Shown: positions 38,784 to 57,882 of the stretch, one piece after another
How positions within the stretch are numbered: the stretch's first letter is position 1
How the letters are laid out: each line of letters opens with the position of its first letter
IMG/VR virus record: IMGVR_UViG_3300037424_000754
Span: 1 to 61,644 of that record
Source of the DNA: a virus
Lineage: Duplodnaviria; Caudoviricetes
Direction: 5' to 3' (one strand)
DNA length: 61,644 bases
The notes under the pieces: model-generated
What the model was told of the DNA's origin: nothing
Database searches by the model: none
Seen by the model: the letters and a program-made list of their open reading frames with translations, nothing else
Translations under genes and position numbers: made by a program

Positions 38784-38896
38784 GTGCCACAGCGCCGCTG
38801 CGTTACAAGCCCCTCTGGCGCGCAGCCCGAACCGATGGGAGAGGCGGGCACCCGTAGGGTGCCGCCCGATCTCTCCTTAAGGCGGCACTCTGCGGA
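38784..38896 (-). repeat. Dispersed element copy A (inverted relative to 57769..57882)
   Basis: Shared TCCGCAG.GTGCCGCCTTAAGG, GGCGGCAC.CTA.G.GTGCCCGCCT, TGT.ACGC.GCGGCGCT.TGGCAC. Confidence 0.8.
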
Positions 38897-38999
38897 ATGG
38901 GGTTTTTTGGCCAAAAAGTGACACGCACCTACAGTGACGAAATTCCGTAGAGTGCCAAGGCGTCTGGTAAATGCACCCGGAGAGGGCGCATAAAATGAG

Positions 39000-39397
39000 C
39001 TACGGATGGGTGCTTGGCGTCTCTTGGACGCGGAGATCCTCGGGCCACTCGGAGGGCTCAGCACCCTTCCGACCACGAAGCCCCACGGTTCCGCCGGCAG
39101 CGACGGGGCTGGATCCAAGCTGCTTAACAAACACGGGCACGCCCGCTGCGCGACACTGCTGAACGATGGACCTGATCCAGGCGAGGTCGCACGGGCGCGC
39201 CCTGGGGCCGCTCTCGCCGCCCACGATGACCCAGCCTACCCGCGGGTCTGGGCTGTCGAGCACATCCAGCCTTGCGTAGGTGTCGAGCCGCCCCGGGTAA
39301 GGGCCGACCCGCGTCAGATCGAGCGGCCCGATGAGCGGCTCGGCCGAGACGAAGCGGACCACGGCAGGTATCTCCAGGAGCCATGACAGGCGGTAGA
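39000..39397 (-). pseudogene. C-terminal fragment of DUF5131 (gp37/gp68-like) protein
   Basis: LLEIPAVVRFVSAEPL, WVIVGGESGPRARP, GVPVFVKQLG; N-terminal Cys part absent. Confidence 0.75.
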
Positions 39398-39676
39398 GTC
39401 GTTGGGTAATGTCTGCGCAAGCCCGCCCCAGGCCGCCTGGCAGCTACCATTGTCCACGATGAAGGCCAGGGAGAACACCTTGATCCCGGACTGCTGTTGG
39501 ATGGTGAGCAGGGTCTGGCTGTTCGTAAGCCCCATGTCGATATAGGGCGCGAAGGTGTGGCTTACGGTTCCCGTGGCACCCGTACATCTCGCGGCCAGGG
39601 CCCTGCACGCAAAACACAACGCCGCCGCGACGATGAGAAAGTAAGACACCAAGTAAACCTTCATCGTCTTAGTCAT
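39398..39676 (-). pseudogene. Truncated secreted GH18 chitinase-like gene
   Basis: Signal peptide, FAPYIDM, SGIKVFSLAFIV..CQAAWGG; breaks off before any DxDxE motif. Confidence 0.6.
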
Positions 39677-39690
39677 GATCGAGCCCAGCC

Positions 39691-40995
39691 CTATGGACAC
39701 AGCGAGCGAGTATCGACAACATAGCCCTGTATCGGCCCCGCGGAGTCACCCCACTTCGAGCCGAAAAAGACGCGCTTGCCGTCTTGGCTCGGAACAGCGT
39801 GCGGCGACGTACCAAGAGGCATGCGATGGTGGGCTAGCCGGTAATGCCGACCGTTTGTCCCGAACGCAACGATCTCGCCTACGGCGCTCCCTGTCGTGCT
39901 GTAAAGCCCGCCAATAGCCCAGCCAATTACGGCGCCAAGCCGCACGGACCCTGCATGATAAGAGCCTGCTCCAGTATCCCAGATCGCAGACTGACTTCCA
40001 TCTGACAATTTATACCTGACGCCGTTACCCGAGATTGCGTACTCAATGCCATCAGATCCGGTCGTCATGTCGTAGTGCCCCGCAGCGAATTGAGCGCGCC
40101 GCGTCAAATTCACCGCACCAGTAGTCTGGTTCCAGTCGAGAACCGCTGTCTCTGCGGAGCTACGCGATACGATGATGTACGTGCCTAGCGGACTAATGGA
40201 CACCCAGTCAAGCGAAGATATTCCTACGCTCGCGATAGTAATGTCAGCCGTTTTCTTGACGGCGCAACCAGGGGTGAGCGTGGTCATACACGCCGTCATG
40301 TCCACCACAAAGAAATACGGAGGCCCGGATGTGCCCTGCCCTACGCTAACTATGACCCATCTGCCATTCTCCGAGATGTTGCCTTCGGCCGGCCCAAAAC
40401 CAACCTGTACGCTGGACGCCAGACCCCCAGAGTAAACAGTTGTCTTAGCGTTTGTGCGAACATTCCAGAACACGATCGATCCGCTGTCGTCATCAACCTG
40501 TACTGCGGTGTCTGGCAGCTTAGGGTGCCAGCGCCGGTCAAATACGTCAGCCGCGAAACGCCCCTCTCCTATCGAGATAGGCTGGTAAGTGTCGCCATCC
40601 AAAAAGATGGGCGCGGCCCCAGGCTGATTGGTCATATCGATCTGAAGGATCGATCTACCCTGTGAGTCTGGCGTACTCCAGGCTGGAGCTTTTGGATAAA
40701 TGCTGTACGCCTCATCGCTCCATGTCTGGCCCGTGGATCCTATGGCGCTTCCAACGTCTCCGGTAACACGGATGATCTGTGTGCCAAAGGCCGGATCCGT
40801 TATGCTTTGCAAATATGCCGGCTTCGTGAGCGCTCCCTGCGCGTGCGTACCCGTGTCCGTAACCAAAGCATCGCAGTATGGCGTGACGGCCGGGGCCGAC
40901 GAAATGGGCGTGCATCTCGCGGCCAGGGCTCTAGATGCCAGGCCCAAGGCAATCACTGCGCTTACGGCAAGGGCAACCTTCATGATTCTGGTCAT
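39691..40995 (-). CDS. Secreted beta-propeller protein
   Basis: Signal peptide, DPAFGT.I.RVT, RLAHH, PHAVPSQDGKRVFFGS.W. Confidence 0.7.
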   Translation of the reverse strand: MTRIMKVALAVSAVIALGLASRALAARCTPISSAPAVTPYCDALVTDTGTHAQGALTKPAYLQSITDPAFGTQIIRVTGDVGSAIGSTGQTWSDEAYSIYPKAPAWSTPDSQGRSILQIDMTNQPGAAPIFLDGDTYQPISIGEGRFAADVFDRRWHPKLPDTAVQVDDDSGSIVFWNVRTNAKTTVYSGGLASSVQVGFGPAEGNISENGRWVIVSVGQGTSGPPYFFVVDMTACMTTLTPGCAVKKTADITIASVGISSLDWVSISPLGTYIIVSRSSAETAVLDWNQTTGAVNLTRRAQFAAGHYDMTTGSDGIEYAISGNGVRYKLSDGSQSAIWDTGAGSYHAGSVRLGAVIGWAIGGLYSTTGSAVGEIVAFGTNGRHYRLAHHRMPLGTSPHAVPSQDGKRVFFGSKWGDSAGPIQGYVVDTRSLCP

Positions 40996-41152
40996 GTCAT
41001 GCTCTCCTGTTGGCCGTGCAGGATGGTGCTTGCTCTAATGATGTAGTCCTGGGCATCGTTAAGCGTGACAACATACCCGGGGCCGCTGCATAGGGCATGC
41101 GAGAGGGTTGTCGCATAATTGGTCCCATTCAGGGTGATGACTGTTGGGCTTG

Positions 41153-41356
41153 TCAACGTAGGGGGCGCCGTGGTCGTCCCTGGTCGCGCCCGGAGAGGGC
41201 GGCCCTATCTCTCCGCCCCTGCTCCCGAACCGCCTCGCGGTAGGTGCGCCCCGTGCCGCACTCTGTCGCGGGCATCCACCACCCCTCGTCGTCCACGCTC
41301 CACCCCTGCGCCTCCAGGGCGGCCCTCTCCTCGGGGGTCGGGAGGTAGCGGCTCAT
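41153..41356 (-). CDS. Hypothetical protein
   Basis: ATGA coupling. Confidence 0.5.
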   Translation of the reverse strand: MSRYLPTPEERAALEAQGWSVDDEGWWMPATECGTGRTYREAVREQGRRDRAALSGRDQGRPRRPLR

Positions 41357-41562
41357 GCCGTGTACCCCCGCAGCGATCTCAGGGCAGCCATCATCGCGAT
41401 CACGTCACCCTCGGCCATCGCCCTCGCCGCCGCGTCCAGATCGGCGCGCATCATCGCCAGCGCGATGTCGCCAGTTCCGCCGGACAGTTCCATGTACACT
41501 GGCATTACCTCGTCCCGCACGCGGGTTATCTCGCGGGGTAGTTCTTCGCCAAGCGTTCTCAT
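41353..41562 (-). CDS. Small hypothetical protein (MRTLGEELPRE...)
   Basis: ATGA coupling, AGGAG RBS. Confidence 0.6.
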   Translation of the reverse strand: MRTLGEELPREITRVRDEVMPVYMELSGGTGDIALAMMRADLDAAARAMAEGDVIAMMAALRSLRGYTA

Positions 41563-41870
41563 CGCTTCTCCTTTTCCTCTAGGCCGAGGCGGGCCAGGGC
41601 GCGGCACACCGGGCACCAGGCGTGCTCAGGCAGGTACTCGGTTAGCACATCGGGGCAGGCAGGAACGATCTTCCCCTCTCGGTGGGCCCGCCAAACGAAC
41701 ATACACGGCAGGCGGTACCGCATCAGTCGTGCCTCCTTCTCCACCGCAAGCAGCGCGCGTAACTCCGCCGCCAGCGCCCTGTTCGTCTCCGGGTCTCGCT
41801 CCAGGAGCCCCGGCGCACCCGGGCGGAGCAGGTAGTCGGACAGCATCGGAGCGATTCTGGTCTTACCCAC
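41559..41870 (-). CDS. Cys-containing hypothetical protein
   Basis: Operon packing; CPVC. Confidence 0.5.
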   Translation of the reverse strand: MGKTRIAPMLSDYLLRPGAPGLLERDPETNRALAAELRALLAVEKEARLMRYRLPCMFVWRAHREGKIVPACPDVLTEYLPEHAWCPVCRALARLGLEEKEKR

Positions 41871-42477
41871 GGTCAACCTCCTCGTCCTGGGCGGCGCGGG
41901 CGCGGATCTGAGTGAGCATATCGATCGCCTCCTCATTGCCCATCGCCGTGAGCGTCACCAGACAGCGCGCCGTCTCCTTTAGCCTCGCCTCAGCCCCCCT
42001 CGCCCTCTCCTCGGCCGCCTCGGCGCGGCGCTCGGATACGCTGGTCCGTTCCAGCAGGGTCCCTAGGCGCTCTCGTGCAGCGGGGTACGGCTCGCCCTTT
42101 AGCCCGGCCGCATCCAGCGCCGCGACGAGGGGGTAAACGTGCTCGCTCCAATTCACGGTCTGGCACCCGATGATGCTGTTGCGTATTTCACTGATCTTCG
42201 CGAGTGCAGTCGCCAGCCGGTCGCGCTCGAAGCGGAGAGCGGAGACCTGATCCATGAGGCAGCGGCGACACGTGCAGGCGTCGGGGCCGATGGTGTCCGC
42301 GTCGCAGTTCCAGTCGGTCGCCTCGGGCTGCTCTCCGGCCGGCGCCGCCGGAGCCTTCGCGGCGCCCGGAGCGCAGTCCTCGCAGCACGGCGGGTGCATC
42401 CGACCATCAGGCCCCGCATGGCAGTGACAGCGACCCCCGCACCTCGTCGTGGCCGCCGGCGCCGCCGCGCTACCCAT
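41863..42477 (-). CDS. Cys-rich coiled-coil hypothetical protein
   Basis: CHCH..CCEDC, CTCRRC, NWSEHVYPLVAAL. Confidence 0.55.
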   Translation of the reverse strand: MGSAAAPAATTRCGGRCHCHAGPDGRMHPPCCEDCAPGAAKAPAAPAGEQPEATDWNCDADTIGPDACTCRRCLMDQVSALRFERDRLATALAKISEIRNSIIGCQTVNWSEHVYPLVAALDAAGLKGEPYPAARERLGTLLERTSVSERRAEAAEERARGAEARLKETARCLVTLTAMGNEEAIDMLTQIRARAAQDEEVDRG

Positions 42478-42703
42478 TGCCCACCACCGCGAACTCCTCG
42501 TAGGCGGCGAGCGCAGCGTATGCGGCCTTGCACCACGGATGCGGATCGCCACGCTTTACGCCGTCCGGATAGCCGGCGTCCGGATCGGTCTCGAACCACT
42601 GGTGATCCAGCATTTTGCACATATCCCTGAGTGCCTTAGCGAGGGAGGCACACTGTGTTTCGCTAGCCGTCAGTCGATCAGTCACGCTACCTTCGCTAGG
42701 CAT
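42470..42703 (-). CDS. Hypothetical protein
   Basis: GGAGG RBS before ATG 42703. Confidence 0.5.
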   Translation of the reverse strand: MPSEGSVTDRLTASETQCASLAKALRDMCKMLDHQWFETDPDAGYPDGVKRGDPHPWCKAAYAALAAYEEFAVVGNG

Positions 42704-42956
42704 TGGTCTTGCCTCCTCTCGCAATGTCTGGTAGCTCCGTCGGCATAGGGAAACCGTCACACCTACCGTCCGCCGGCCACAGCACGAGTGCCGTCCCAGC
42801 CATGCAACAGCCGGAGCGTGGAGCGCCCACCGTGCGCATCGCCCACTGCACGTCGAGTGCATAGCACGCCGACAGCGCCAGCCTCCCGCACCGGAGGCAG
42901 TAGCGGCCAGCGACGACGACGGGCTGCGGGGGCGGCTTACGTTCACGTCTGGTCAC
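42696..42956 (-). CDS. Cys-rich hypothetical protein
   Basis: AGGAG RBS, GTGA overlap. Confidence 0.45.
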   Translation of the reverse strand: MTRRERKPPPQPVVVAGRYCLRCGRLALSACYALDVQWAMRTVGAPRSGCCMAGTALVLWPADGRCDGFPMPTELPDIARGGKTNA

Positions 42957-43636
42957 GGCTTGGTCTCCTTTGTCTCTGGCTCCCCATCCCACCAGCAATT
43001 GCAGTGCGTCCCGTCCTCTCTCTTGGGGCAGGGCGACTCGTCCTCACCAGAGTAACCACACGAGCAGCACACGCCACTGCTTACCTGTTTCGCCTGGCAC
43101 TCGTACGGTTGGCGCACTCCCGGCGCAGGAAAGGTTTTGCTGCAAGTCGCCATGCGGCAGGTGGCGTACCCGGTGACGACATTGGCGTCGGCGGCACTTC
43201 CGCAGTCCGGGCACTTGGCGAGAAGAACGCGAAGACGGCGAACCTCAATCACCAGGGCGGGCACGGATTCAGCCATCCGATCGAGAGACGCGAACGGATC
43301 ATTAGCCCCCGAGATCCACTCGATGGCCCGGTGCTCTACCTCATTCAGCGATTCCTCGTTCAACGTCTCCACTGACACCTTCATCACACGCAGCCTCTCC
43401 GCGGTGCTCTTCGTGCTAGCCTCGGCGGCCGCCGCTCTCATCTGCTCCGCCTCGACCGTCCCACACCCAGCCAGTTTCGCTGGCCCTCCGCACTCGGGGC
43501 ACCGCAGAGGCCCCACCGCCGGGACCTCCGCGTCGAGGATGGCGCGGAAGCGCATGGCGTACGAGCGCACAGCAAAATCGCCATACCTTTCCATTTCCTC
43601 TGCCAGCTTCCTGATCTTCTCGATCGCGTCGTTCAT
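42953..43636 (-). CDS. Multi-zinc-finger hypothetical protein
   Basis: CPECGG, CPDCG, CCSCG. Confidence 0.55.
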   Translation of the reverse strand: MNDAIEKIRKLAEEMERYGDFAVRSYAMRFRAILDAEVPAVGPLRCPECGGPAKLAGCGTVEAEQMRAAAAEASTKSTAERLRVMKVSVETLNEESLNEVEHRAIEWISGANDPFASLDRMAESVPALVIEVRRLRVLLAKCPDCGSAADANVVTGYATCRMATCSKTFPAPGVRQPYECQAKQVSSGVCCSCGYSGEDESPCPKREDGTHCNCWWDGEPETKETKP

Positions 43637-43857
43637 GGCGGTCCTTTCCATACTGGGAGGGGGTGGTCCTTCTTGGCCCTCCTGAGCGCCTCCACTGCCT
43701 GTTCGCCGGCCTCGATAGCCTCCTTTATATTGGAGTCAGGGACCCATGGGCGATCGTGAACCCTGAATGCCAAGACAGACGTAACGGCGGCAGACCACAG
43801 ATCGCTTTCCTTTATAAGCCACAAATACACAAACCGGCTCTCCGTCTCCCTTTCCAC
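43633..43857 (-). CDS. Hypothetical protein
   Basis: Operon packing. Confidence 0.45.
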   Translation of the reverse strand: MERETESRFVYLWLIKESDLWSAAVTSVLAFRVHDRPWVPDSNIKEAIEAGEQAVEALRRAKKDHPLPVWKGPP

Positions 43858-43869
43858 GCTAACGCCTTT

Positions 43870-44079
43870 CTAGACCAAGCCCATCTTCCTGGCCCACCAG
43901 CCCTTAACCATGAGCCTGCCCGTGTTCGCCTTCATCGAGTAAACCTCAGAGTCATCATGGATCACAGACTTCGGGACCCAGACTTCCTCCTCGCCCTCTA
44001 GCATACAAAGCAGAGCCTTGTCTGTTTCCTTGACCGCCTCGGCGTCGGCGTTCCACGTATCGTCCCAGGCGTCGTTCAT
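43870..44079 (-). CDS. Small phage protein (ETDKALL..EEVWVPKSVI)
   Basis: Motif style common in phage hypothetical proteins; ATGA coupling. Confidence 0.6.
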   Translation of the reverse strand: MNDAWDDTWNADAEAVKETDKALLCMLEGEEEVWVPKSVIHDDSEVYSMKANTGRLMVKGWWARKMGLV

Positions 44080-44411
44080 CCCTTGGTCTCCTTCCCCTTG
44101 GGGTTGTACCGTCTGAACGCCTCGTCCTTTGCTTTTGCCTCCTCGTATTTCTGCAACAGGAACTCCCTGGTTTGAACAGCCTTCATGTAAAGCTCCGTCG
44201 GCTGCGGGCGCACCGGCCTAAGGTCGTCGCTCCATTGATGATGCGCGCAAGTGCGCCTGTCACTACACGCACAGCCGCCCCAATGCTCGCCTTCAACGTC
44301 AAGCCTCGGCATGGAATGGACGGAGCCGCAGAGCGCACACAGGAACCGCGAGCAGCCATCCGACTCTAGATGGTGCGCCTCGCACTTGGAGCACTTCGGC
44401 AGCCTTTCCAT
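44076..44411 (-). CDS. Cys/His-rich hypothetical protein
   Basis: CSKC..HH, CALC. Confidence 0.5.
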   Translation of the reverse strand: MERLPKCSKCEAHHLESDGCSRFLCALCGSVHSMPRLDVEGEHWGGCACSDRRTCAHHQWSDDLRPVRPQPTELYMKAVQTREFLLQKYEEAKAKDEAFRRYNPKGKETKG

Positions 44412-44427
44412 TATCGGTTACGCCTTT

Positions 44428-44634
44428 CTAAGTGGCGAATCTGACCGCGTCTCCGTACGATTCGTGCCAGTGCTGCGGCGCCTTGACATAGGTTATGCTC
44501 CACGCACCACACTTAGAGCACTTCCAGCGAAGCGCATGATCTTCGCCCCTAAGCCACAATGTCGAGCTAAAGACGCCTGGTTGAGTCGGCAGGTAAAACA
44601 TCGGCTCGTGCTTGCACTCGGGCATAGCTGTCAC
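44428..44634 (-). CDS. Zinc-ribbon mini-protein
   Basis: CKH...CSKCG. Confidence 0.5.
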   Translation of the reverse strand: MTAMPECKHEPMFYLPTQPGVFSSTLWLRGEDHALRWKCSKCGAWSITYVKAPQHWHESYGDAVRFAT

Positions 44635-44637
44635 CCC

Positions 44638-45057
44638 CTAGAATGGAATGTCATCCGGCGCGGGAGCCGCGGGAGCCGCGCTCCCTGTCTCCGGTTCCTT
44701 CTCGTCTGCGGCGGCAGGCACTCGATCGCTCTTACCGCCCAGGAACTTCACCTGCTCTGCGACCACCTTGGTCCTGTATTTCTCCTGACCGGATTGCTTG
44801 TCCGTCCACTTGTCGGTCTTAAGGCGCCCCTCAACATAGGCTTGCCGGCCCTTGGCTAGGTACTCGCCGCAAAGCTCAGCCAGTTTGGACCACGCCTCGA
44901 TGTAAACCCATTCCGTTTCCTCCTTCTTCTCGCCGTCCTTGGTCTGCCATCGTCGCGTGGTGGCGAGAGAGAAGGAACAGATGGCGGTTCCCGTTTGCGT
45001 GTACTTGACTTCCGGATCTTTGCCTAGGTTACCAATTAGAATCACCTTGTTAATCAT
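44638..45057 (-). CDS. ssb: Single-stranded DNA-binding protein
   Basis: NKVILIGNLGKDPE, YVEGRL, C-terminal DDIPF. Confidence 0.97.
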   Translation of the reverse strand: MINKVILIGNLGKDPEVKYTQTGTAICSFSLATTRRWQTKDGEKKEETEWVYIEAWSKLAELCGEYLAKGRQAYVEGRLKTDKWTDKQSGQEKYRTKVVAEQVKFLGGKSDRVPAAADEKEPETGSAAPAAPAPDDIPF

Positions 45058-45391
45058 CGTCCCTGCGCTCCGTCATGGGCACATGGCCCACGCACCACCA
45101 TGCTCCGTAGATTCGGAAGTGAGGCCCGTACGTACAATACGGTACGGTACACTTCCTGGGCTTCCTCTGCCTGCCTAAACCCGCCCTGCCAAGCGACGTC
45201 AATATGGACATGGCGGCCGAGTCCGGCATGAGGCGCCTGCCTGCCTCTATCTCCTCTATGTCATCCTCCTTCAAACCCGCGAAGTATGCCATACCGGACA
45301 GGGAATGTCCCAGGCTTTCGCGGATCATTCTCCAGACCTCGCCGTCTCTCTCGTACGGAGGCTTACTCTTCAGCGTCGATATCCTTGTCAT
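45050..45391 (-). CDS. XRE-like HTH protein with C-terminal Cys/His motif
   Basis: IRESLGHSLSGMA..AGL...IEEIEAGR. Confidence 0.5.
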   Translation of the reverse strand: MTRISTLKSKPPYERDGEVWRMIRESLGHSLSGMAYFAGLKEDDIEEIEAGRRLMPDSAAMSILTSLGRAGLGRQRKPRKCTVPYCTYGPHFRIYGAWWCVGHVPMTERRDDD

Positions 45392-45728
45392 GGAACAGGT
45401 CGGCCTCCTCAAGCTCTGAAGCGATATCTTCAAACGGCAACCCGTCGTCATTCCAGCTAGCGATTGAAAACTCGTTGGAAGCTGAAGCAATGCCAACCCA
45501 TTTCCTCACCCCATCTGGCATCTCAATGCGACTGCTGTCCGGCCCTAGACTGAAAGTATACACATCCCCTTGGCTAGGCCACCAAGAGCCTTTGCCCGTC
45601 TCCCTGCGGTACACTTCACACGCCACACCCAGGCAGCAATAGGTGTCCTGAGTCTTGAGCGCATACCGCCCCTGCTTGAATTCACCGCTCCTTAATGCCT
45701 TGATCCACTTCCTGGCGTTCTCGTTCAT
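45363..45728 (-). CDS. Phage hypothetical protein
   Basis: KWIKALRSGEFKQG..CCLGVACE..ND...F.DIA motif. Confidence 0.65.
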   Translation of the reverse strand: MNENARKWIKALRSGEFKQGRYALKTQDTYCCLGVACEVYRRETGKGSWWPSQGDVYTFSLGPDSSRIEMPDGVRKWVGIASASNEFSIASWNDDGLPFEDIASELEEADLFHDKDIDAEE

Positions 45729-46017
45729 GGCCTTATCTATCCTCGTCTTGTTAATAGCCTTTCTCTGGCCTCCAAACGAAACATCTGGCGAATCGTATAG
45801 ACTTCCCAACCAATCATCGACAACGGAGCGCAGTTGCTCACCGTGATCAGTCGATCCCTCCTTTCCCTGTATGGAATAATTAGCGCCGATGGCTTCGCGA
45901 GATCCCATTCAGCCAAGGCACGCCTGAAATTCATGATGAAGCAGTCGGCATCGTGTCGTATGCCTAAGCAAATGTCGTGGGCCTCACGCGATATGCCGTT
46001 CGAGAGTCGCCTGTAAG

Positions 46018-46254
46018 CTACCTTCCGCCGAATGGGCATGGTCCACCGTGTGCGTATCGCCCGCAGATAGGGCAATGAATCGGTTTTTCTTGTGCTGGGG
46101 CTGGCTCAAACCCAGGACACCCGCAGCCCGGCGCATTACAGCCTGAGCTTGGTCTGAGCAAATACGGAGCAGTAGGCTTAAATCCGTGGAGACGGTAGGG
46201 GTGTGAACACCTACCACAATCTGCAACATCGCTTATGGTGGACTGCGCAGCCAT
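46018..46254 (-). CDS. Cys/His-rich mini-protein
   Basis: CGRCSH..H, CGC, CPICG; start uncertain. Confidence 0.45.
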   Translation of the reverse strand: MAAQSTISDVADCGRCSHPYRLHGFKPTAPYLLRPSSGCNAPGCGCPGFEPAPAQEKPIHCPICGRYAHGGPCPFGGR

Positions 46255-46318
46255 AGGGTCGCCAGATCGGGGCCATTTTACGCTGACCCCACCCACATTT
46301 AACCAATGCAACTGTTAA

Positions 46319-46450
46319 CTATTTGTGAACAGAAGGCTCCCCTAACTTTTTGGTTAGCCAACCGAATCCCAACACAACCGCTGCGATTACTCCGACCCAC
46401 GCGAAAACCAGCATGAGCATGACGAACAGCATCGCGAAATAGTCTGCCAT
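46319..46450 (-). CDS. Single-TM 43-aa protein (not in ORF track)
   Basis: MADYFAMLFVMLMLVFAWVGVIAAVVLGFGW, directly after a promoter. Confidence 0.5.
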   Translation of the reverse strand: MADYFAMLFVMLMLVFAWVGVIAAVVLGFGWLTKKLGEPSVHK

Positions 46451-46475
46451 GGCCTTTGCCCGCCCTTCTGCGCGC

Positions 46476-46505: not shown

Positions 46506-46572
46506 GTCCGGTGCGGCTGCCCACGGACCAGCAGGCTCACCGCTCCTCGGGGACCGGGGCTCCCGTTGAACC

Positions 46573-50440: not shown

Positions 50441-50448
50441 AAGACCGT

Positions 50449-50709
50449 TTACGGCTGCACGTCAAACAGATCCTTTGGCCATCCGCCGCAGTAATATGCC
50501 GGCCGGTCCCCGATCCCGCAGCGTTGACACTCGCGCGGGAATCGCAGGTATTTCACCGTAAGCGGCCCCGCAGAGGTGTAGTACGTTTCGCCATCGTACT
50601 CCTCGCAGTCGTACCACTCCTCCGGGGTTAGGCCATGAGCCTGGAGACCCGCCGCGAACGCTTCAGACCCTACGTCGAGCTTCGCCCGTCCCTTCATAGC
50701 GGTCTCCAT
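50449..50709 (-). CDS. Hypothetical protein with CxxC
   Basis: Operon packing; start uncertain. Confidence 0.45.
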   Translation of the reverse strand: METAMKGRAKLDVGSEAFAAGLQAHGLTPEEWYDCEEYDGETYYTSAGPLTVKYLRFPRECQRCGIGDRPAYYCGGWPKDLFDVQP

Positions 50710-50918
50710 GGGCATCGAGCATCATGCTTCTTGTCCGGATTGAGGCATCGGCACCCGTCCTTGATGGCGGCCCTAATAGCTATTCCCTCCACGCTCGGAA
50801 CCGGAGGCCAGGCCATCTCATCACAGATCCTCGCGCACCGCTCCGCCGTGTCCATCATCTGAGAGAGCAATAGTCCCGATAAGCGCTTCGTTAGCTCATC
50901 CAGGAGTGCCTCATCCAT
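50694..50918 (-). CDS. Hypothetical protein (ERCARIC..AIR)
   Basis: Operon packing. Confidence 0.45.
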   Translation of the reverse strand: MDEALLDELTKRLSGLLLSQMMDTAERCARICDEMAWPPVPSVEGIAIRAAIKDGCRCLNPDKKHDARCPWRPL

Positions 50919-50923
50919 GCCAA

Positions 50924-51181
50924 TCACCATCCTTTATCTAGCTTGCTTTGCGACCTGGTCGCCCGGTCCACCAGGCTACGAACATGCTTCTCCGCCGAAG
51001 CCCTGGGCAATCTCTCTCCGGCCAGCCACTCCCCGGCCATGATGCGAGGCCATACACCTTCCTTTTGCCACTTACTCCTCATCTCCTCGCACCATGGATG
51101 ATCAACGCATCCCTTGCCGTTAGCCTTCAGGCAAAAGACGATCTTCTTTCGGATCCGAATCACAGAGTCATAGTCGAACAC
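50924..51181 (-). CDS. Hypothetical protein
   Basis: Operon packing. Confidence 0.45.
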   Translation of the reverse strand: MFDYDSVIRIRKKIVFCLKANGKGCVDHPWCEEMRSKWQKEGVWPRIMAGEWLAGERLPRASAEKHVRSLVDRATRSQSKLDKGW

Positions 51182-51182
51182 G

Positions 51183-51368
51183 CTATGTACTCGCGGTCTT
51201 GCATTCCATGCACTGGACGAGCTTCACGCTGGGGCGTCTGCTCTTCACGGCATATACGCCCTTCGGTGCCCTGGCGATGATCCTTGTGTAACAATAGCCC
51301 TTGCCGTGGCACACGGGACAAACAGGCTCATCCCGATCCCTTACCGGTAGACTGTGCTCCTGCCCCAT
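51183..51368 (-). CDS. Zinc-finger mini-protein
   Basis: CPVCHGKG...CMEC, GGAG RBS. Confidence 0.55.
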   Translation of the reverse strand: MGQEHSLPVRDRDEPVCPVCHGKGYCYTRIIARAPKGVYAVKSRRPSVKLVQCMECKTAST

Positions 51369-51377
51369 TGGCTCCCC

Positions 51378-51536
51378 TTAGAAGATTGCTAGTATCAGGA
51401 TCGATCCTGCCAGCGCAACGCCGAGCGCCACCATGTATGCGGTTCGCTCTCCCCAATACATGATCGGCCAATCACTGATAATGGTTACGATCATGCATAT
51501 CAGGCACAGCGTGAGCAGCAGCACCAGCAGCGCCAT
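51378..51536 (-). CDS. Two-TM 52-aa membrane protein (not in ORF track)
   Basis: MALLVLLLTLCLICMIV... Confidence 0.45.
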   Translation of the reverse strand: MALLVLLLTLCLICMIVTIISDWPIMYWGERTAYMVALGVALAGSILILAIF

Positions 51537-51557
51537 GGTTTTCAAGTTAGCTCCCGA

Positions 51558-51619
51558 GAAGAAAAGGCCGGGGTTCGGCAGGGAAAGGATTAACCCGCCA
51601 TCTTAACGGGCACCCCGGC
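51558..51619 (-). terminator. Large hairpin plus U-tract
   Basis: GCCGGGGT...ACCCCGGC-CTTTTCTT. Confidence 0.45.
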
Positions 51620-51736
51620 TGGCCCGGCGACAGTCAGGGGCCGCTCTGGCTGCCGACCCTACAGAGAAATCCGATGATCAGGGCCGCCAGGCATGTTGCT
51701 ACGTAGATCCAGGCGTACACGCTCACTCCCATCATC

Positions 51737-52048
51737 TTATGAGTAAGCCATCTCATCGCTCGCCCTCTGATCGTGACGGCCTTTATCGACATCAGTATGA
51801 GGCGGGATCCACTTCCCGGCCCGGGTGCATTTCCAGCCGGCCGCCTTTCTGGCTCTTCGGTGTCTATTGGTCGCATCCAGTTGTCCTTGCTTTCTTTTAG
51901 CAACCATCGTAACCGGGAGAAAATCCAGCAAATACTCAACCGCCTTTGTCACCTCCGGAAGCGCTCCGGTTTGCTCTAGACGATGCAGTTCCTGGGCGAT
52001 GATCTCCAGCACCTCGTCTGCGCGCCAGGTGGTTCCCTTATTCCTCAA
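51737..52048 (-). CDS. Hypothetical protein
   Basis: Operon packing. Confidence 0.5.
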   Translation of the reverse strand: MRNKGTTWRADEVLEIIAQELHRLEQTGALPEVTKAVEYLLDFLPVTMVAKRKQGQLDATNRHRRARKAAGWKCTRAGKWIPPHTDVDKGRHDQRASDEMAYS

Positions 52049-52521
52049 TTCCTTACCACTCCTTTCATAACGATTGCTCTGACTCGATCTAGGACGAGCC
52101 CCCTCTCCGCTGGCTTCAGCGGCGCAAGCTCATCCCACCACCACCCTAGATCATATCGGGCCCTCTCCCGTAGCGATCTGCCCACAGCCAGGCCGCCCAG
52201 AAAAGCAGCCTCAATCAGTGGGTACCGCTCGAACATCGTAGTGGCCTCCCAAAGCTGTCGCTCGCGAGGCCAGCCAGGGTGCGCGCTCTCCACCAGGGCC
52301 GTGAAGTCCGCAAGATGCCTAGGGGGCGACCAGTTGTCAAGGCTATGATCGGGATCCGGGGGTCGCGTAGGTGCGTTTACCAGGTCGTGCTCCCTGGCGC
52401 CGCCCTCTTTCTGGTCTTTTTGCTCTGCCTTGATCTTGACGATCTTATCCTGCTGTTCGCCTCTGACCTGATCCTTCTCCGTTCGGCTCTCTATTGGCCG
52501 TCTCTTCCACTGTTCGGTCAT
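52045..52521 (-). CDS. Hypothetical protein
   Basis: Operon packing. Confidence 0.45.
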   Translation of the reverse strand: MTEQWKRRPIESRTEKDQVRGEQQDKIVKIKAEQKDQKEGGAREHDLVNAPTRPPDPDHSLDNWSPPRHLADFTALVESAHPGWPRERQLWEATTMFERYPLIEAAFLGGLAVGRSLRERARYDLGWWWDELAPLKPAERGLVLDRVRAIVMKGVVRN

Positions 52522-52825
52522 GGCCTATCCATTTCTTAGGCCCAGGATCTTCCACGGTCGCCGGGCCGCTACTGCACAGACTCGCGTTACAGCCATGCAT
52601 ACATCCATCGGGCATGTGAGCCACAAGCATGTGCGTACACGCACACCACTGCGGTTCGGGCGGCTCCGTATCCTCCGGCATAGCAGGCGCGGGCGCAATC
52701 TCGCCCCTCATGATGGAGGCAGCAGCGACCATCTCGAACAGCAGATCCCCGTCCTTGAACACGTGAACGCCGTTCCGACGTAGAACGTCCGCGATGCGTC
52801 CAATCTCCTCCAGGCTTAGGCCCAT
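52445..52825 (-). CDS. Hypothetical protein with Cys/His motif
   Basis: LRRNGV..F..G..; CACTH..H...CMHGC. Confidence 0.5.
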   Translation of the reverse strand: MGLSLEEIGRIADVLRRNGVHVFKDGDLLFEMVAAASIMRGEIAPAPAMPEDTEPPEPQWCACTHMLVAHMPDGCMHGCNASLCSSGPATVEDPGPKKWIGHDRTVEETANREPNGEGSGQRRTAG

Positions 52826-52831
52826 AACGCA

Positions 52832-53341
52832 TCAGTCCGCGTCGGGGAGAAGGTCGTACTCGTCCATGCTCTCTCTCGGCACGCCTCTGCGCTCCCGAAT
52901 CCTGTCATCGAGAGAAGCCGCGGGGGCCGCCACGTCAGGTGTGACTGTAGGCACATGAGGCACCGCAACGGGGACTGGGTTAGGGTTTGCCTGAACGAGG
53001 GGACGCACCCCGTGACATAGTTCGTCGATTCTACGGGACAGGGCGACAAAATCCTCGCGGAGGCGCCTCTCTAGCTCCGCAATCCTGCCACGGAGGGCCT
53101 CCAATGACAAGTTAGACACATAAGCCATGTCCTGGTTCATCATGGGCGCCCTATCTGCGATGATCTTGCTGGTTGTCTCCTCCAGGTGCTTCATTCTCGC
53201 CATCATCTCGTCCCAGGGCGAAGTGTAGGCCGTTGGTGCGTCCGATGTGGACGCTACCGCCTGCATCAATCGCGCAGATGCCCATGGCTTAATGTAAGAG
53301 CACGTAGGGCAGTCCCCTGCGATGTCGATATGGACACACAT
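52832..53341 (-). CDS. Coiled-coil hypothetical protein
   Basis: TAATG coupling at 53341. Confidence 0.5.
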   Translation of the reverse strand: MCVHIDIAGDCPTCSYIKPWASARLMQAVASTSDAPTAYTSPWDEMMARMKHLEETTSKIIADRAPMMNQDMAYVSNLSLEALRGRIAELERRLREDFVALSRRIDELCHGVRPLVQANPNPVPVAVPHVPTVTPDVAAPAASLDDRIRERRGVPRESMDEYDLLPDAD

Positions 53342-53664
53342 TATCTCACCTTTCTTGCCTTGATTTGAGTGTCTACCTGCGTTCTCAGCCGGACCACTTC
53401 TTCCTGTAGGTCGAGCAACATCTTTTGCACGTCGCCTGTTTCCATGAGCCTGGCTATAGTGCTCACTCCGCACCACAGGGAATTGGCTACCTTGGGATCG
53501 AGTTTACCCTTCTCCAGCTTCCGAAAGGCGATAATGGCCCGCCACTTCAGGTCGCCTAGGCTCTCCAGGCGCCAGTAACGCTTCCCGTCCTGGCTCCTGG
53601 GTGGGTAAGGGTCGCCGGAATGTATCGATCGTTCGCCCGGCTCTCGACCTCGGCTGTCGGCCAT
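53341..53664 (-). CDS. Hypothetical protein, possible terminase small subunit
   Basis: LEKGKLDPKVANSL..L.E...L..L.E helical pattern; near terminase. Confidence 0.3.
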   Translation of the reverse strand: MADSRGREPGERSIHSGDPYPPRSQDGKRYWRLESLGDLKWRAIIAFRKLEKGKLDPKVANSLWCGVSTIARLMETGDVQKMLLDLQEEVVRLRTQVDTQIKARKVR

Positions 53665-53667
53665 CGC

Positions 53668-54030
53668 CTACTCCTCGCACGTCTCCAGGTACTTTTGGGC
53701 AAGCTCTTTAATTTGCTTCAGGCTCTCATCGGGAGCCAGTATCCCGCTTGCTCGCGGTCTTGCTAACTGGTCATAGGTTAGCACCGGGGCGTCATAAGAC
53801 GCTATGAGTCGCATGACCATCCTGGCCTGCATCTCCCGATCCGGAACCGTGTCCGACTCCAGGGGCCTCCCTTTTTCAAGTCGCTGCATCAGGGCTTCTG
53901 CTATCTCCACGGCCCTGTTAACCAGCATCTCAGGCGACCAATGCCGGGCGCAGACCTGAGCGTTTGATGCCAGCCCCTCTACGGCAAGCAGCACGGCCGA
54001 CTCGAACGTCGCTGCGTTACTCGCGATCAC
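53668..54030 (-). CDS. Hypothetical protein
   Basis: Operon packing. Confidence 0.45.
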   Translation of the reverse strand: MIASNAATFESAVLLAVEGLASNAQVCARHWSPEMLVNRAVEIAEALMQRLEKGRPLESDTVPDREMQARMVMRLIASYDAPVLTYDQLARPRASGILAPDESLKQIKELAQKYLETCEE

Positions 54031-54268
54031 ACTCGATCTCCCTCCAGGCGCACATCTGCGCCTCCAGCGCTTTTCGTGATGGACAGGACAGCATGTGAAG
54101 ACGATACCTCGTCCGTATGACCTGGAAATGATCCTGTCCTGAAGCCTCGGGCGTTGTGTTGGCTAGATGGCGGTCTGCCTGCTGAATTTCCTCGCCGCAG
54201 ACACATGGACTGCCGACCATGAGGGCGGTCAAGAACACTCGCAATGGCACGTCTTCCCATCTACCCAT
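54017..54268 (-). CDS. Cys-containing hypothetical protein
   Basis: Operon packing. Confidence 0.45.
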   Translation of the reverse strand: MGRWEDVPLRVFLTALMVGSPCVCGEEIQQADRHLANTTPEASGQDHFQVIRTRYRLHMLSCPSRKALEAQMCAWREIECDRE

Positions 54269-54271
54269 GGC

Positions 54272-54604
54272 CTACGCTCCGACCTCCCGAGAGCCCGCCT
54301 TGCGCATCTTCCGGGCAAGCGGCCCCTTCGCCTTGCCGCGGGGTTCCTTCGCCGCAGGCTTCGCCCTGGGGGCAGGGTCCCCGTTGACGGCGATGCCTCG
54401 CCTCACGAGCACGGCCTTGCCGGCCTTATTGTCGAACACACAGCCGACCCCGAACTTCGCCACGACCTCCGTCTTCGTTCGCATCCCGGTCGTGGTAATG
54501 ACGAACAGCGGAACCCGGCGAGCCCTGTTGTCGGCAACCCACCTGTAGATGACTCCGCCCTCCCAATTCGTCACCGCCACGTCTGCCTTCTTTTCCTTCG
54601 CCAT
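54272..54604 (-). CDS. Highly basic small protein
   Basis: GGAGG RBS, own promoter, K/R-rich tail. Confidence 0.7.
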   Translation of the reverse strand: MAKEKKADVAVTNWEGGVIYRWVADNRARRVPLFVITTTGMRTKTEVVAKFGVGCVFDNKAGKAVLVRRGIAVNGDPAPRAKPAAKEPRGKAKGPLARKMRKAGSREVGA

Positions 54605-54635
54605 GATTCAGCCAACCTCCTGATTGGGTTACGAA

Positions 54636-54664
54636 ATCCTAACCATATCGAGCAAGGGTGTCAA
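54636..54664 (-). promoter_or_regulatory. Sigma70-like promoter
   Basis: TTGACA-17-TAGGAT. Confidence 0.65.
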
Positions 54665-54667
54665 GCC

Positions 54668-56260
54668 CTACAGGATGCCCGAGCCCCAGCCGCCAGTCTC
54701 CTCCCAGCCGCTCATCTGTTTTTCGTTGGCCTGTTTGTTTTCTAGAGCCTCCTCCTCCATCCTCTGCATGCGGTCCGCCTCTCGCTTCTGCCATTCGGCG
54801 GACCCTGCCGGCGGGAGCTTGGGCTCATTCTGGTGCAGGTATGTGTAGCACCACCGCCAGTTATACAAGGCGCCATCGCAAAGATGGTTGGGGCAGCCGG
54901 GGTGTTCCTTTCTCGAGCCAGGCGGGGCATTAGGGTCCCAAATCAGCCCCTCCCATTCGTCAGCCAGGGACAAGGATTCATGGTGCTCCTTCTCATCGTT
55001 TTGAACCCCATCAGCGGCTTCCAGGTTTAGCTGTATGTTCCCTAGAATTAGCTCAGAGTTCATGATCTCGATGAAGTCTTCTTTGCCCCTCTTATCGGCG
55101 GCCTGGAGCGGCAACCCGTGGCGCCTGCGCATCTCCTCTACGGCCTGCTTATTTGCTCCGTCGATTACGAGGTAGCTAATCTGGCCGCCCTCCTTCTCGA
55201 CGATCCCGTAGAACTTCCGTATCCGGTTTGCCACGTCCGTAATGTCCATCTTCCACTGCTTCCAAGTCTTGATGATGAACAGGATGGGGCTATAGTCATG
55301 ATAGGCCGTTAACACGAATGCGGACGGGTCTGGGAAATACCCAAGATCCACCCCAAGCACATAGTGCCACTCTCCGCTTCCGAATACAGGGAGATCCTTA
55401 AACACGTTCCTGGACGGATCGTACTTGTAACACCTGGCTTCTAGGTCGATGACCCATTCGCCTAGATACATCTGACGAAAGCCCGGAGTCTCGACTACCC
55501 TCGGGTTGGCCGCTATTCGTTTGGCTATCTGCTCAGAAAACTGAGCAGCCATGTACGGATTTTGATGAGTCGTCCAACTATGCCCGCTCCATCCTGGCTC
55601 CCTCTCGCTCTCCGGGCTTACGTAGCCAGCCTTGGAGCCCTTAGTGACCTGGTGAAAGAAACCGTTGACGTTATTCCCTGGGGTCCCGATTAACGCTATC
55701 GAGCCGCGCAGGTCGGCTACGGTAGGCAGGAGCGTATCGTAGACGAACGGCTTAAGGTCAATTCGCCAGTCCTGGGCCTCGTCTATCGTGATCTTTCGGT
55801 TCTTGCCGCCTAACTGCTTTCGCTTCTCCTTCTCGTTGGCGTCCGCCCCTACAAGCTGAATGCGAGCGCCGTTAGGAAGGACAGCCTCAAGTCTCGACTC
55901 ATTGAACTTGATCCCTATGTTGTATCGGTCGTCCAGGTTCTTCAGCACGTCGACCCAGAACTGATTCCTCGCCGTCTCCCTGGTGAGCCCCAGGAATAGG
56001 TACTTGGCCCCCGGGAAGCTTCGGGCGTCGTCGATGTACTCCCCGCCTACGCTGTAGGTCTTGGCTGCACGCCGAGTACATAGCGCCCATTTCAATTGCG
56101 CTGGGTCTTGGACGAACGCCAGGGATTCAGGAAAGAATCCCTGTAGAACGTCCGGAATCTGAGGGAGCACGTTAGCGATGCCGGTTTCAACCTCGGCATC
56201 GGCAGCGATGGCCTGTACCTTACGGTACTCCCTCATCACCCGGCTGCGAAGCCCGCTCAT
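54668..56260 (-). CDS. terL: Terminase large subunit
   Basis: TRRAAKT (Walker A variant), ITIDEAQ (Walker B), GTP coupling motif, YLGEW, LGVDLG, HLCDGALY. Confidence 0.9.
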   Translation of the reverse strand: MSGLRSRVMREYRKVQAIAADAEVETGIANVLPQIPDVLQGFFPESLAFVQDPAQLKWALCTRRAAKTYSVGGEYIDDARSFPGAKYLFLGLTRETARNQFWVDVLKNLDDRYNIGIKFNESRLEAVLPNGARIQLVGADANEKEKRKQLGGKNRKITIDEAQDWRIDLKPFVYDTLLPTVADLRGSIALIGTPGNNVNGFFHQVTKGSKAGYVSPESEREPGWSGHSWTTHQNPYMAAQFSEQIAKRIAANPRVVETPGFRQMYLGEWVIDLEARCYKYDPSRNVFKDLPVFGSGEWHYVLGVDLGYFPDPSAFVLTAYHDYSPILFIIKTWKQWKMDITDVANRIRKFYGIVEKEGGQISYLVIDGANKQAVEEMRRRHGLPLQAADKRGKEDFIEIMNSELILGNIQLNLEAADGVQNDEKEHHESLSLADEWEGLIWDPNAPPGSRKEHPGCPNHLCDGALYNWRWCYTYLHQNEPKLPPAGSAEWQKREADRMQRMEEEALENKQANEKQMSGWEETGGWGSGIL

Positions 56261-56261
56261 T

Positions 56262-56468
56262 TCACAAAAGCCCCGTCCAGGCGAGCACGGCCGCGCACAC
56301 CGTTACGACGCCAAAGCCAATGAACCCAACCGCCATGGCTACGGCCAGCCTGCGATCTGCGTCAGCCATGACCCTCATTAGTTCATCGTCCCCGCGTCCA
56401 ACCGCCGGCCTCTTCCTTGGACCTTGGCCTGCCCTGAGCGCACCCTCGATTCCCGTTAGCCACCCCAT
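56262..56468 (-). CDS. Small membrane protein
   Basis: C-terminal hydrophobic helix. Confidence 0.5.
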   Translation of the reverse strand: MGWLTGIEGALRAGQGPRKRPAVGRGDDELMRVMADADRRLAVAMAVGFIGFGVVTVCAAVLAWTGLL

Positions 56469-56472
56469 CCGG

Positions 56473-56769
56473 TTACTCGGCCTTGATTGATGGGGGCGTT
56501 CCGGCCCTGTGAGCGTTACGGAGCCTTGCGTCGGTGTCAGGATGCTGCTCGATTAGCTCCACGTCGCAGTAGCGGATACTGCCCCACGGCACGAGCATAT
56601 ACACCGTGGTCGCGCCAGTTGGCTTATCGAGAACCTTCTTAACCACCACGCCATTCTGGGTTTCCGTGAATCCGATCCTGCTATCCGTACCGTATATGGC
56701 GCGATCGGAAAGCGCCCCAACGCCACCTGAGTCTGCCGCCATGTGAATCGCCTTGATCATGTATTGCAT
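56473..56769 (-). CDS. Hypothetical protein
   Basis: RBS, LVPWGSI motif. Confidence 0.6.
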   Translation of the reverse strand: MQYMIKAIHMAADSGGVGALSDRAIYGTDSRIGFTETQNGVVVKKVLDKPTGATTVYMLVPWGSIRYCDVELIEQHPDTDARLRNAHRAGTPPSIKAE

Positions 56770-56785
56770 TTTTGGTTCCCCTTGG

Positions 56786-57325
56786 TCACTTCATGTATGG
56801 GTTATACACCGGCCCTGGACGGTAGATACGCCTCCGACCGGACGAGTCTCCCGGGTCCGGCTCATCGTGGGCTGCGGGCCATTTTCGGAGCAGGGTTTCA
56901 GCACCCCGCCAGCGTGCTTCGCCCGTGGTTCGGTCGAATCGATCCTTCGTGTGGTGAGTGAAGTAACACCGCATCGGGTCCGGGACTGTGGCGGTTATCA
57001 GTTTCGTGGCGATCCCTAGCTGCCGCCATGCCTCCTTAACGAACAGGTAGTGAACTATCGGCATGTCCGCCGTGTCTTCTTCCAGCACGATGTATCCGTA
57101 GATCGTGTCATCGCTTTCTGGATCATGACCGATCGTGACGTGAGTGCCATGACGACACAGGATCTGCTCTATGGTCTCCCTGTTGTACATGTCGTAAACG
57201 GTCCTGTGGATCAGGCGCGCGAAATCGCTTCCCTTGTAGTAGCTCCTTTGCCAAGTCTGCATGATGAACGGTGCGTCGTCTGCCCGTTCACGCCTCATTC
57301 CGATCTTTAGGTCCCTATGGGTCAT
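56786..57325 (-). CDS. GNAT acetyltransferase
   Basis: IYGY..VHYLFVKEAWRQLGIATKL acetyl-CoA motif. Confidence 0.75.
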   Translation of the reverse strand: MTHRDLKIGMRRERADDAPFIMQTWQRSYYKGSDFARLIHRTVYDMYNRETIEQILCRHGTHVTIGHDPESDDTIYGYIVLEEDTADMPIVHYLFVKEAWRQLGIATKLITATVPDPMRCYFTHHTKDRFDRTTGEARWRGAETLLRKWPAAHDEPDPGDSSGRRRIYRPGPVYNPYMK

Positions 57326-57671
57326 CTATCCGTTTCTCCAGTCCGCTCTCCATGTCGAACTCCCGAAGGTACCACCTTCCCGTTTTCTTGCTCTTGCTCC
57401 ACCCATGCACGTGGATGAACCACCCTACATCAAAAAGGATGACCAAGTCATCCCGGTGCTCGCCTTGTATCTTGGCGATCCTAGCCTGCATGTTACTGCC
57501 GGTCGTTGTCTGTACACCTATCGTACCATGCCTGTTCACCGCCAGTATGTCGATGAAACCGAAGAGGTCCTGTCGAATCTTGGCGAATGCGTTCCATTTC
57601 TCTGTGATGCCGACAAGCCCCCCATGTCGCTTAAGCAGGTAAGCCTTCGATCGAGAGGTCGGTGAACTCAT
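57315..57671 (-). CDS. PD-(D/E)xK endonuclease / resolvase-like protein
   Basis: E.WN...R.DLFGFIDILAV...GVQTT. Confidence 0.6.
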   Translation of the reverse strand: MSSPTSRSKAYLLKRHGGLVGITEKWNAFAKIRQDLFGFIDILAVNRHGTIGVQTTTGSNMQARIAKIQGEHRDDLVILFDVGWFIHVHGWSKSKKTGRWYLREFDMESGLEKRIDDP

Positions 57672-57768
57672 CTAGTCCTTTTGTGGCAAACGCGCCAGGG
57701 TGTCTTGTTACGCTGCGATTTTAAGCATTCAATTACAACCGGCCGACCGAACGACTCAAACGGGTGAA

Positions 57769-57882
57769 TCCGCAGCGTGCCGCCTTAAGGGACGGACTGG
57801 CGGCACTCTAAGAGTGCCCGCCTTGTCCCTGTATACGTGCGCTGCGTTACAGGGCCTCTGTTACGCTGCGGCGCTCTGGCAC
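57769..57882 (+). repeat. Dispersed element copy B, downstream of primase-helicase
   Basis: Matches reverse complement of 38784..38896. Confidence 0.8.

Follow-up and report, generated by a model that had tools for sequence, protein, structure and literature searches.

The 61,644-nt DNA stretch analysed here in its whole length (the window; IMG/VR virus record IMGVR_UViG_3300037424_000754, Duplodnaviria, Caudoviricetes) is the genome of a complete soil/sediment phage, circularly assembled at ~61.5 kb, and it carries two related non-coding elements of ~115 nt in inverted orientation: element A, with its core at 38784–38896 on the + strand, and element B, with its core at 57769–57882 on the − strand, next to the gene of a primase-helicase fusion protein (58029–60110, − strand). 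With moderate confidence we read A and B as iteron-type replication origin sites that would be bound by the winged helix predicted at the C-terminus of this helicase, comparable to the Rep-ori pairs of Staphylococcus aureus pathogenicity islands (SaPIs) and phage-inducible chromosomal islands (PICIs) and to the alpha protein of P4.

The inverted pair had been proposed in a first-pass annotation made without database searches, and the description given there of the two copies is borne out: the reverse complement of 38784–38896 aligns with 57769–57882, and blastn of B against the genome returns A on the opposite strand with 74% identity (E 2.4e-14). Of the 262 inverted repeats detected in the window, this pair has the greatest length (I1; arms of 89 nt, 71%), and 18,872 nt separate its arms. 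A gapped local alignment of intergenic gap A (38514–38999; 486 bp, free of genes) with gap B (57672–58028; 357 bp, between the helicase stop codon and the next gene), both taken in full, returns the same coordinates with a score of 84, against a mean of 19.4 and a maximum of 30.5 in 200 mononucleotide shuffles. The covariance model of the element (R1) matches B with 130.8 bits and A with 114.4 bits and finds no third copy in the window. Both copies contain CCTTAAGG and the inverted repeat GTGCCGCC...GGCGGCAC, together with a central hairpin that reads GGCACCC-GTA-GGGTGCC in A and GGCACTC-TAA-GAGTGCC in B. B has the polarity of the helicase mRNA, its core starting 146 nt past the helicase stop codon, and holds, besides the palindromic pair GGCACTC-N3-GAGTGCC, the block CCTTAAGGCGGCAC and, at its helicase-proximal end, AGGTGCCA. 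A has this helicase-sense polarity on the + strand and is hence inverted with respect to B and to its flanking genes, the neighbouring genes with family matches all lying on the − strand. Both cores are GC-rich (0.65–0.69) with AT-richer flanks (0.48–0.51) when compared to the genome (0.60); in gap B these values are 0.65 for the core and 0.49–0.51 for the flanks, whilst the left flank of gap A (38514–38780) has a GC content of 0.48. A decayed duplicated gene, raised earlier as another possible source of the similarity, was rejected: the indels of the A/B alignment are not multiples of three and B has stop codons in all three matched frames, and thus the elements are non-coding. Gap A also gave no third-position GC signal.

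The two gaps share a short motif that extends beyond the repeated core. All six occurrences of the 8-mer AGAGTGCC in the window fall within them, with the sites in gap A at 38631(+), 38781(+), 38884(−) and 38949(+), of which 38631 and 38949 lie outside the core. Gap A also contains the GGCACCC/GGGTGCC pair at 38848–38863 and holds seven GTGCC/GGCAC sites, the 500-bp bin 38500–38999 being the sole bin with at least six of them; the motifs at 38631 and 38661, together with the ones from 38781 onwards, flank the AT-richer stretch, which gives A a fuller layout than B. Gap B is the weakest array, with two exact AGAGTGCC copies and three copies with one mismatch (at 57774, at 57870 and AGGTGCCA at 57875–57882). 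Genome-wide counts with one mismatch (58 sites against 60 expected) are uninformative. The C-G to T-A swap between the two central hairpins had been taken as compensatory; pairing is indeed kept, but the swap also turns both half-sites of B into AGAGTGCC, a variant of the repeated motif, so that a change of binding motif fits at least as well as base pairing. Two further repeats were seen. The exact 11-mer GCAGCGTAACA occurs twice in the window, both times in gap B (57706–57716 and 57859–57869, − strand), where it forms the outer stem of B, with two-mismatch variants in both gaps (38734, 38797, 57841 and 57989), although with up to two mismatches it is not enriched overall (15 against 13.8 expected). 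For GTTACGC, 13 copies were counted in the window where 5.0 are expected.

The element accompanies the helicase gene in other genomes. Close helicase relatives came from a metagenome scan only, which yielded six loci (L005–L010) with helicases 61–69% identical in protein; L005 and L006 are near-identical, as are L007 and L009, and L008 and L010 end inside the helicase gene. All four loci that reach past the helicase stop codon carry the element ~20 nt after it in the orientation of B and, since they form two near-identical pairs, they count as two independent relatives. In the viral contig collection, a search with the single helicase protein gave no relatives and a search with the helicase alignment gave only two distant ones, with none in the genome contigs; likewise, a blastn search of 50,697 phage records with both gaps gave no match, and scans for the exact core pattern gave 0 hits in the viral contigs (strict and degenerate pattern) and 0 in the genome contigs. 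In the close relatives the helicase stop codon is followed by three tandem GGGTGCC copies at 9–10 bp spacing, next by the palindromic pair GGCAC-N-GTGCC and then by the block CCGTCCCTTA(A/G)GGCGGCAC, with further direct and inverted motif copies downstream, 56–70 nt past the core; seven GGTGCC/GGCACC sites in both orientations are found within ~155–190 bp. The AGAGTGCC copy at 38949 in gap A aligns with the downstream copy of the relatives, a copy that B does not possess. The sequence flanking the motif is particular to each genome (AAGGGTGCC in L005/L006, ACGGGTGCC in L007/L009 and AGAGTGCC in the phage), and the conserved blocks are kept in A, B and the relatives despite helicase identities of only 61–69%. 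Comparison by blastp of all open reading frames (ORFs) of at least 50 aa from L005–L010 with all window ORFs revealed that the helicase alone is shared, and the GC content of the relatives is 68–72% compared to 60% for the phage. The DNA-level, replication-linked role suggested in the first-pass annotation is thus supported, in that the element accompanies the helicase gene across otherwise unrelated genomes. Over the right-hand part of the core, A and B are 76% identical and each is 74% identical to L006: A is as diverged from B as it is from L006, yet keeps every conserved block, which argues that A is under selection too, and from their sequences both copies look constrained. As to the surroundings of the relatives, L010 (740–4037) encodes a tyrosine integrase, an Arm-DNA-binding ORF and a weak AlpA-like ORF, all upstream of the helicase, and in L009 (923–2765) the element is followed by a weak TerS-like ORF and a capsid gene of the HK97 type; by this layout the close relatives look like island- or satellite-like integrative elements.

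Ten more distant helicase loci (23–42% identity) include sequence past the helicase stop codon, the placement of which is unreliable in L012 and L013, where the stop fell inside the match. In three of the ten, a 7-mer is repeated five to nine times within 400 bp past the stop (nine times in L018 and in L019, five times in L004). L018 exhibits nine GTGCCG/CGGCAC sites within 245 bp (3897–4141), starting 36 bp past the stop, and L019 nine GTTCCG/CGGAAC sites within ~200 bp (4936–5138); in both, the copies stand in both orientations around an AT-richer centre in which CTTAAG adjoins a motif copy; similarly, CCTTAAGG stands next to GGCAC in the window core. The array motifs are GATCGTGCCGG in L018 (3897–4141), GATCGTTCCGG in L019 (4936–5138) and CCATCGC in L004 (2207–2339). 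L018 and L019 also have a small hairpin of the CTACCTaaAGGTAG type. No second cluster was found in the 14.4 kb of L019, and covariance model R1 gave no match in 12 other loci.

The protein encoded beside B comprises 693 aa with a DnaG zinc ribbon, a Toprim domain and an AAA_25 domain (Zn_ribbon_DnaG, Toprim_2, AAA_25), and its closest homologues, at 56–65% identity, cover the helicase half only. A search of the PDB with the helicase family profile gave 1g8y, the RepA helicase of RSF1010, as sole match (80 residues aligned, E 1.7e-5; a single sequence as query gives E 0.0017), by which the helicase half is related to RSF1010 RepA at the level of sequence profiles. In order to model the C-terminus, the last 106 residues (58032–58349, − strand) were submitted to AlphaFold2 with a seven-row alignment, giving a predicted winged helix of H1-H2-H3-wing topology with a mean predicted local distance difference test (pLDDT) score of 74.6. 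The top Foldseek rows for this domain are winged helices of the PadR, MarR, ArsR and HxlR type (E 4e-3 to 0.1), whilst the best VIA-align match is the Rpa2 winged helix (Z 9.1, root-mean-square deviation 2.0 over 63 residues), the rest being almost entirely winged helices. The region is conserved in the close relatives; in L007 (1316–1477) and L009 (437–598) a frame change, present in both contigs, puts the winged-helix tail into a 53-aa ORF of its own, which overlaps the main helicase ORF at the latter's end.

The four distinct element sequences share a nested dyad symmetry made up of an outer stem and three hairpins: one on the left, a long one in the centre and a small one formed by CCTTAAGG. 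In the consensus structure 93.5% of cells are paired, compared to 82.5% in shuffles (0 of 500 shuffles reach 93.5%), both partners are changed in 9 of the 31 pairs, and slid controls reach 35–51% pairing; as there are only four sequences and the structure was derived from these same four, such covariation is modest evidence at best. The outer part of the central stem differs within the one genome (GGAGAG/CTCTCC in A, GGGAC/GTCC in B) and pairs in both copies. When folded as RNA and compared with shuffles, the sense strands give z-scores of −3.45 (B) and −2.40 (A) and the antisense strand of A only −0.77; as DNA, both strands fold about equally. By hand count the consensus holds eight G-U cells and one unpaired C-A cell, so that the complementary strand would pair less well. 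Together with the folding of the sense strands, this makes an RNA or single-strand role possible, one that could coexist with an origin.

Precedents for reading B as an origin beside its initiator gene come from the SaPIs, the PICIs, P4 and pRN1. SaPI Rep helicases are described as using a C-terminal winged helix to bind 6–12 penta- or hexanucleotide iterons located directly downstream of rep, and pri and rep are given as fused in SaPI5 (PMC9371898); PICI origins are placed directly 3' of the initiator gene (PMC6092414). The phage and its relatives resemble these systems in that B lies 146 nt and the relatives' element ~20 nt past the helicase stop codon (a 3' placement that A does not share), in that the repeats are short and stand in both orientations (seven in the relatives, seven in gap A, gap B being weakest), in that the candidate initiator is a helicase with a C-terminal winged helix (predicted here; self-loading in SaPIs and PICIs) and a primase fused as in SaPI5, and in the island-like layout of L005–L010 (integrase and AlpA-like ORFs in L010, TerS-like ORF and HK97-type capsid gene in L009). 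They differ in that the phage helicase is AAA_25/RepA-like whereas SaPI Reps are superfamily 3 (SF3)/MCM-like AAA+ proteins, in the GC-rich nested palindrome at the centre of the phage element where SaPIs and PICIs have an AT-rich spacer, and in the size of the phage (61.5 kb), where the element is present twice, inverted and 19 kb apart. In P4, the origin (ori) and crr, the 'cis required region for replication', carry the same repeats and lie several kb apart. The phage protein would match P4 alpha in uniting a DnaG-type primase, a helicase and a winged helix (predicted here) in a single polypeptide, and its two separate regions share motif and core; for a second, distant cis site, crr is the nearest known analogue. 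However, the P4 alpha helicase belongs to SF3 while the phage helicase matches only RSF1010 RepA in the PDB, and the phage repeats have no sequence similarity to those of P4. In the sources on P4, alpha is reported as a DnaG-type primase with a helicase and a winged helix that binds the origin repeats (PMC2777425, PMC4234260), and crr as a separate region that is also required (bioRxiv 10.64898/2026.03.30.715334).

Structured elements downstream of the initiator gene are also on record. For pRN1, replication is reported to need a 100-nt stem-loop that lies 3' of rep, and for origins of the pRN1/BIP-1 type an intact stem-loop is reported as needed whilst the element is movable within the replicon (PMC4234260). 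The phage is similar in having a ~100-nt structured element directly 3' of a primase-helicase-winged-helix gene; pRN1 and Bordetella phage BIP-1 differ in their prim/pol primase, their SF3 helicase and origins without iterons, whereas the phage combines iteron-like repeats with structure. RSF1010, of incompatibility group Q (IncQ), is described as having two 40-nt single-strand initiation (ssi) hairpins, ssiA and ssiB, on complementary strands of one oriV, which are read by the RepB' primase (archaeo-eukaryotic class) after RepC has bound the iterons, RepC and RepB' being separate proteins (PMC8567376). Common to RSF1010 and the phage are the RepA-type helicase (the 80-residue match), inverted hairpin-forming elements on complementary strands and iteron-like repeats; in contrast, the phage copies are ~115 nt long and 19 kb apart, and its primase, helicase and winged helix are fused, with a primase of DnaG type (RepC was not specifically searched). 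By analogy, the arrays of direct and inverted short repeats around each phage element look like double-stranded iteron origins.

As we picture the iteron-type origin, the predicted C-terminal winged helix of the primase-helicase would bind the AGAGTGCC/GGGTGCC motifs as iterons, after which the protein would assemble and the dyad-symmetric core with its AT-richer flanks would open; the RepA-like helicase would then load itself, and the DnaG-type primase domain would make the first primers for the host polymerase. B, directly 3' of the initiator gene and in the sole position seen in the relatives, would represent the ancestral site. A would serve the same protein as a second origin or as a crr-like helper in cis; its inversion would then be of little consequence or would determine in which polarity loading takes place. 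The absence of a family A DNA polymerase (no DNA_pol_A match in the genome, the sole polymerase family searched) fits an initiator-only replication module.

Several observations weigh against this assignment. The winged-helix call comes from a seven-sequence alignment with a pLDDT of 74.6 and Foldseek E values of 4e-3 or worse, and a protein other than this one may be the reader of the motif; hhalign of the window winged-helix profile with the C-terminal 100 residues of L018 (E 0.29) and L019 (E 0.012) was not significant. The remaining seven of the ten distant loci show a 7-mer two to four times and no clear array. The centre of the element is GC-rich and not AT-rich as in SaPI and PICI origins, only its flanks being AT-richer. 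A check of GC skew, as the first-pass annotation had proposed, gave no origin signal: the turning points at ~7.5 kb and ~60 kb coincide with the switches of gene strand, so that the skew follows gene orientation only. No second copy was found in any relative within the visible stretches, up to ~4.4 kb either side, and the role of A has therefore to be judged from this genome alone. Finally, more than half of the TAAAAT hexamers of the window lie in the gaps, and a promoter-like site points into A.

These last signals belong to an explanation at the level of transcription, which we hold to be unlikely although it is the most serious of the rivals: A and B could be promoter-fed structured leaders or small RNAs, or an operator/terminator cassette, with B read in the sense direction and A from the + strand as an antisense or independent small transcript. 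Of nine TAAAAT copies in the window, five are located within the gaps; among them, one precedes A and one precedes B, each just 5' of the element and on the strand that has its polarity (that of B at 57889–57894, − strand, 6 nt upstream of the element), and a sigma-70-like match GTAACA-16-TAAAAT at 38739–38766 (+ strand; 9 of 12 positions) points into A, where the scan of the gap A region found two promoter-like sites against 0.1 expected; the better folding of the sense RNAs and the eight G-U cells against one C-A cell point the same way. The promoter scan of gap B, however, was empty, the TAAAAT upstream of B having no matching −35 hexamer, the relatives' element abuts the helicase stop codon without a promoter, no canonical terminator follows either copy, and the DNA strands fold about equally. 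Neither gap matches Rfam 15 at gathering score, and at E up to 1 the only match is mir-1207 (E 0.57; 19.3 bits against a gathering score of 90), which is at chance level. The tandem copies at 9–10 bp spacing and the unpaired copies at 38631 and 38949 are also left unexplained by RNA structure. We regard as improbable that A and B are strand-specific ssi priming hairpins, one per strand as in RSF1010 ssiA/ssiB, which the RepA-like helicase would expose and from which the phage primase would start strand-displacement synthesis. This pairing had been put forward in the first-pass annotation, and the part of it that stands is the RepA-like helicase (1g8y, E 1.7e-5) and the conserved dyad, with outer stems that differ in sequence between A and B but pair in both, with the same polarity on opposite strands, and with G-T pairs that favour one strand. 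What does not carry over is the size and spacing of the hairpins (~115 nt and 19 kb, compared to 40 nt in one oriV), the class of primase (DnaG-type in place of RepB') and the second copy, relatives having only one copy in the stretches seen; moreover, the arrays of direct repeats point to duplex binding, and the covariation is weak for the reasons given above. A split, strand-asymmetric origin, in which promoter-fed structured elements on opposite strands 19 kb apart, the helicase-sense strand of each being the one that folds, would each start one continuous strand via the fused DnaG-primase/RepA-helicase, appears quite improbable; a related possibility, given the same low standing, is that the phage and its island-like relatives share a helicase-origin module such that one fires the origin of the other. 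If true, the split origin would represent the ssiA/ssiB logic of IncQ at phage scale, physically separated and with a different primase class.

The remaining explanations concern A itself or functions other than replication. That A is a relic, an old duplication or recombination having moved an origin core to 38.8 kb with B alone or neither copy working today, seems very improbable to us. The second copy is found in this genome only, and A adjoins a truncated DUF5131 gene (39111–39431, − strand, covering positions 131–217 of the 243-position profile only), which suggests a past rearrangement nearby; the third-position GC phase shifts again at ~39110, suggesting further decay of this gene remnant. 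Yet A, at 76% identity to B and 74% to other genomes, keeps the palindrome, CCTTAAGG, GGCGGCAC and the pairing, and has additional exact motif copies at 38631 and 38949, one of which is the copy that aligns with the relatives and is missing from B. Least probable are sites for recombination (a site-specific inversion of 19 kb) or for DNA packaging, which could draw on the inverted orientation, on the central palindrome CCTTAAGG and on the position of B 1.5 kb upstream of the large terminase gene (54668–56260, − strand). No Phage_integrase or Resolvase family match was found across the genome, the genes between and outside the copies all have one orientation, and in the relatives the element follows the helicase gene and not the terminase gene. 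A single contig-level run is colinear across 38400–58300 with no inversion or strand-switch joint at A or B, contigs being unable to reveal rare forms, starts or ends. We thus return to the iteron-type origin as the reading that we favour.

With regard to the genome as a whole, the record carries the class of virus genomes that have direct terminal repeats and is rated 100% complete, with an exact 127-bp direct repeat at both ends (1–127 = 61518–61644). A Logan contig from one public DNA run, probably the source of the record, presents the same genome as a single contig of 61,547 bases; no RNA run is listed as containing it. As the overlap of the ends varies with the assembler, the end repeat points to circular assembly at ~61.5 kb, and true physical ends are not proven by it. 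The genes form two blocks, one on the − strand from ~60110 down to 7662 and one on the + strand from ~60191 through the junction to 7659. The − strand block includes, in addition to the primase-helicase and the large terminase (a family match), an SU10-type portal (48443–50440), a tRNA-Tyr (48095–48180), a DnaQ-like exonuclease (46849–47592) and the major head protein (35210–36433), as well as, downstream of gap A, a YspA/SLOG-family protein directly adjoining it (38100–38513) and a small zinc-finger protein (37837–38103; CXXCXGXG finger of DnaJ type). In the + strand block are an XRE-type helix-turn-helix protein (60191–60565), a YqaJ exonuclease, RecT and a DNA methylase. This block also includes a match to the type II hammerhead ribozyme (RF02276) at 6175–6241 (+ strand; E 5.3e-6, with 45 bits where the gathering score is 37), located at the 3' end of a + strand ORF (5048–6175) that gives a weak DUF932 match. 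Dense repeats of the GGCGG(A/C)G type, with periods of 9–15 nt and 19 overlapping copies, occupy 60924–61242 inside two overlapping long ORFs (60505–61566 on the − strand and 60562–61251 on the + strand), either strand of which may code.

Origins of uncultured phages are almost never located, and the comparative linkage of element and helicase described here provides a concrete candidate that is defined by one protein domain, one 8-mer and two loci. Helicases that load themselves, carry a C-terminal winged helix and have their origin just 3' of their own gene are already known among the SF3/MCM-like initiators of the SaPIs, P4 and pRN1; if our reading is true, this layout would extend to a RepA/SF4-like helicase fused to a DnaG-type primase. 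In case the second copy is a relic, the finding would shrink to an ordinary origin beside its initiator gene; if A does act together with B, the phage would be the second natural case, after P4 ori and crr, of an initiator with two distant cis sites. Beyond this single genome, the presence of the same module in island-like elements with integrase, AlpA-like and capsid genes hints at an exchange of replicons between phages and satellite-like elements.

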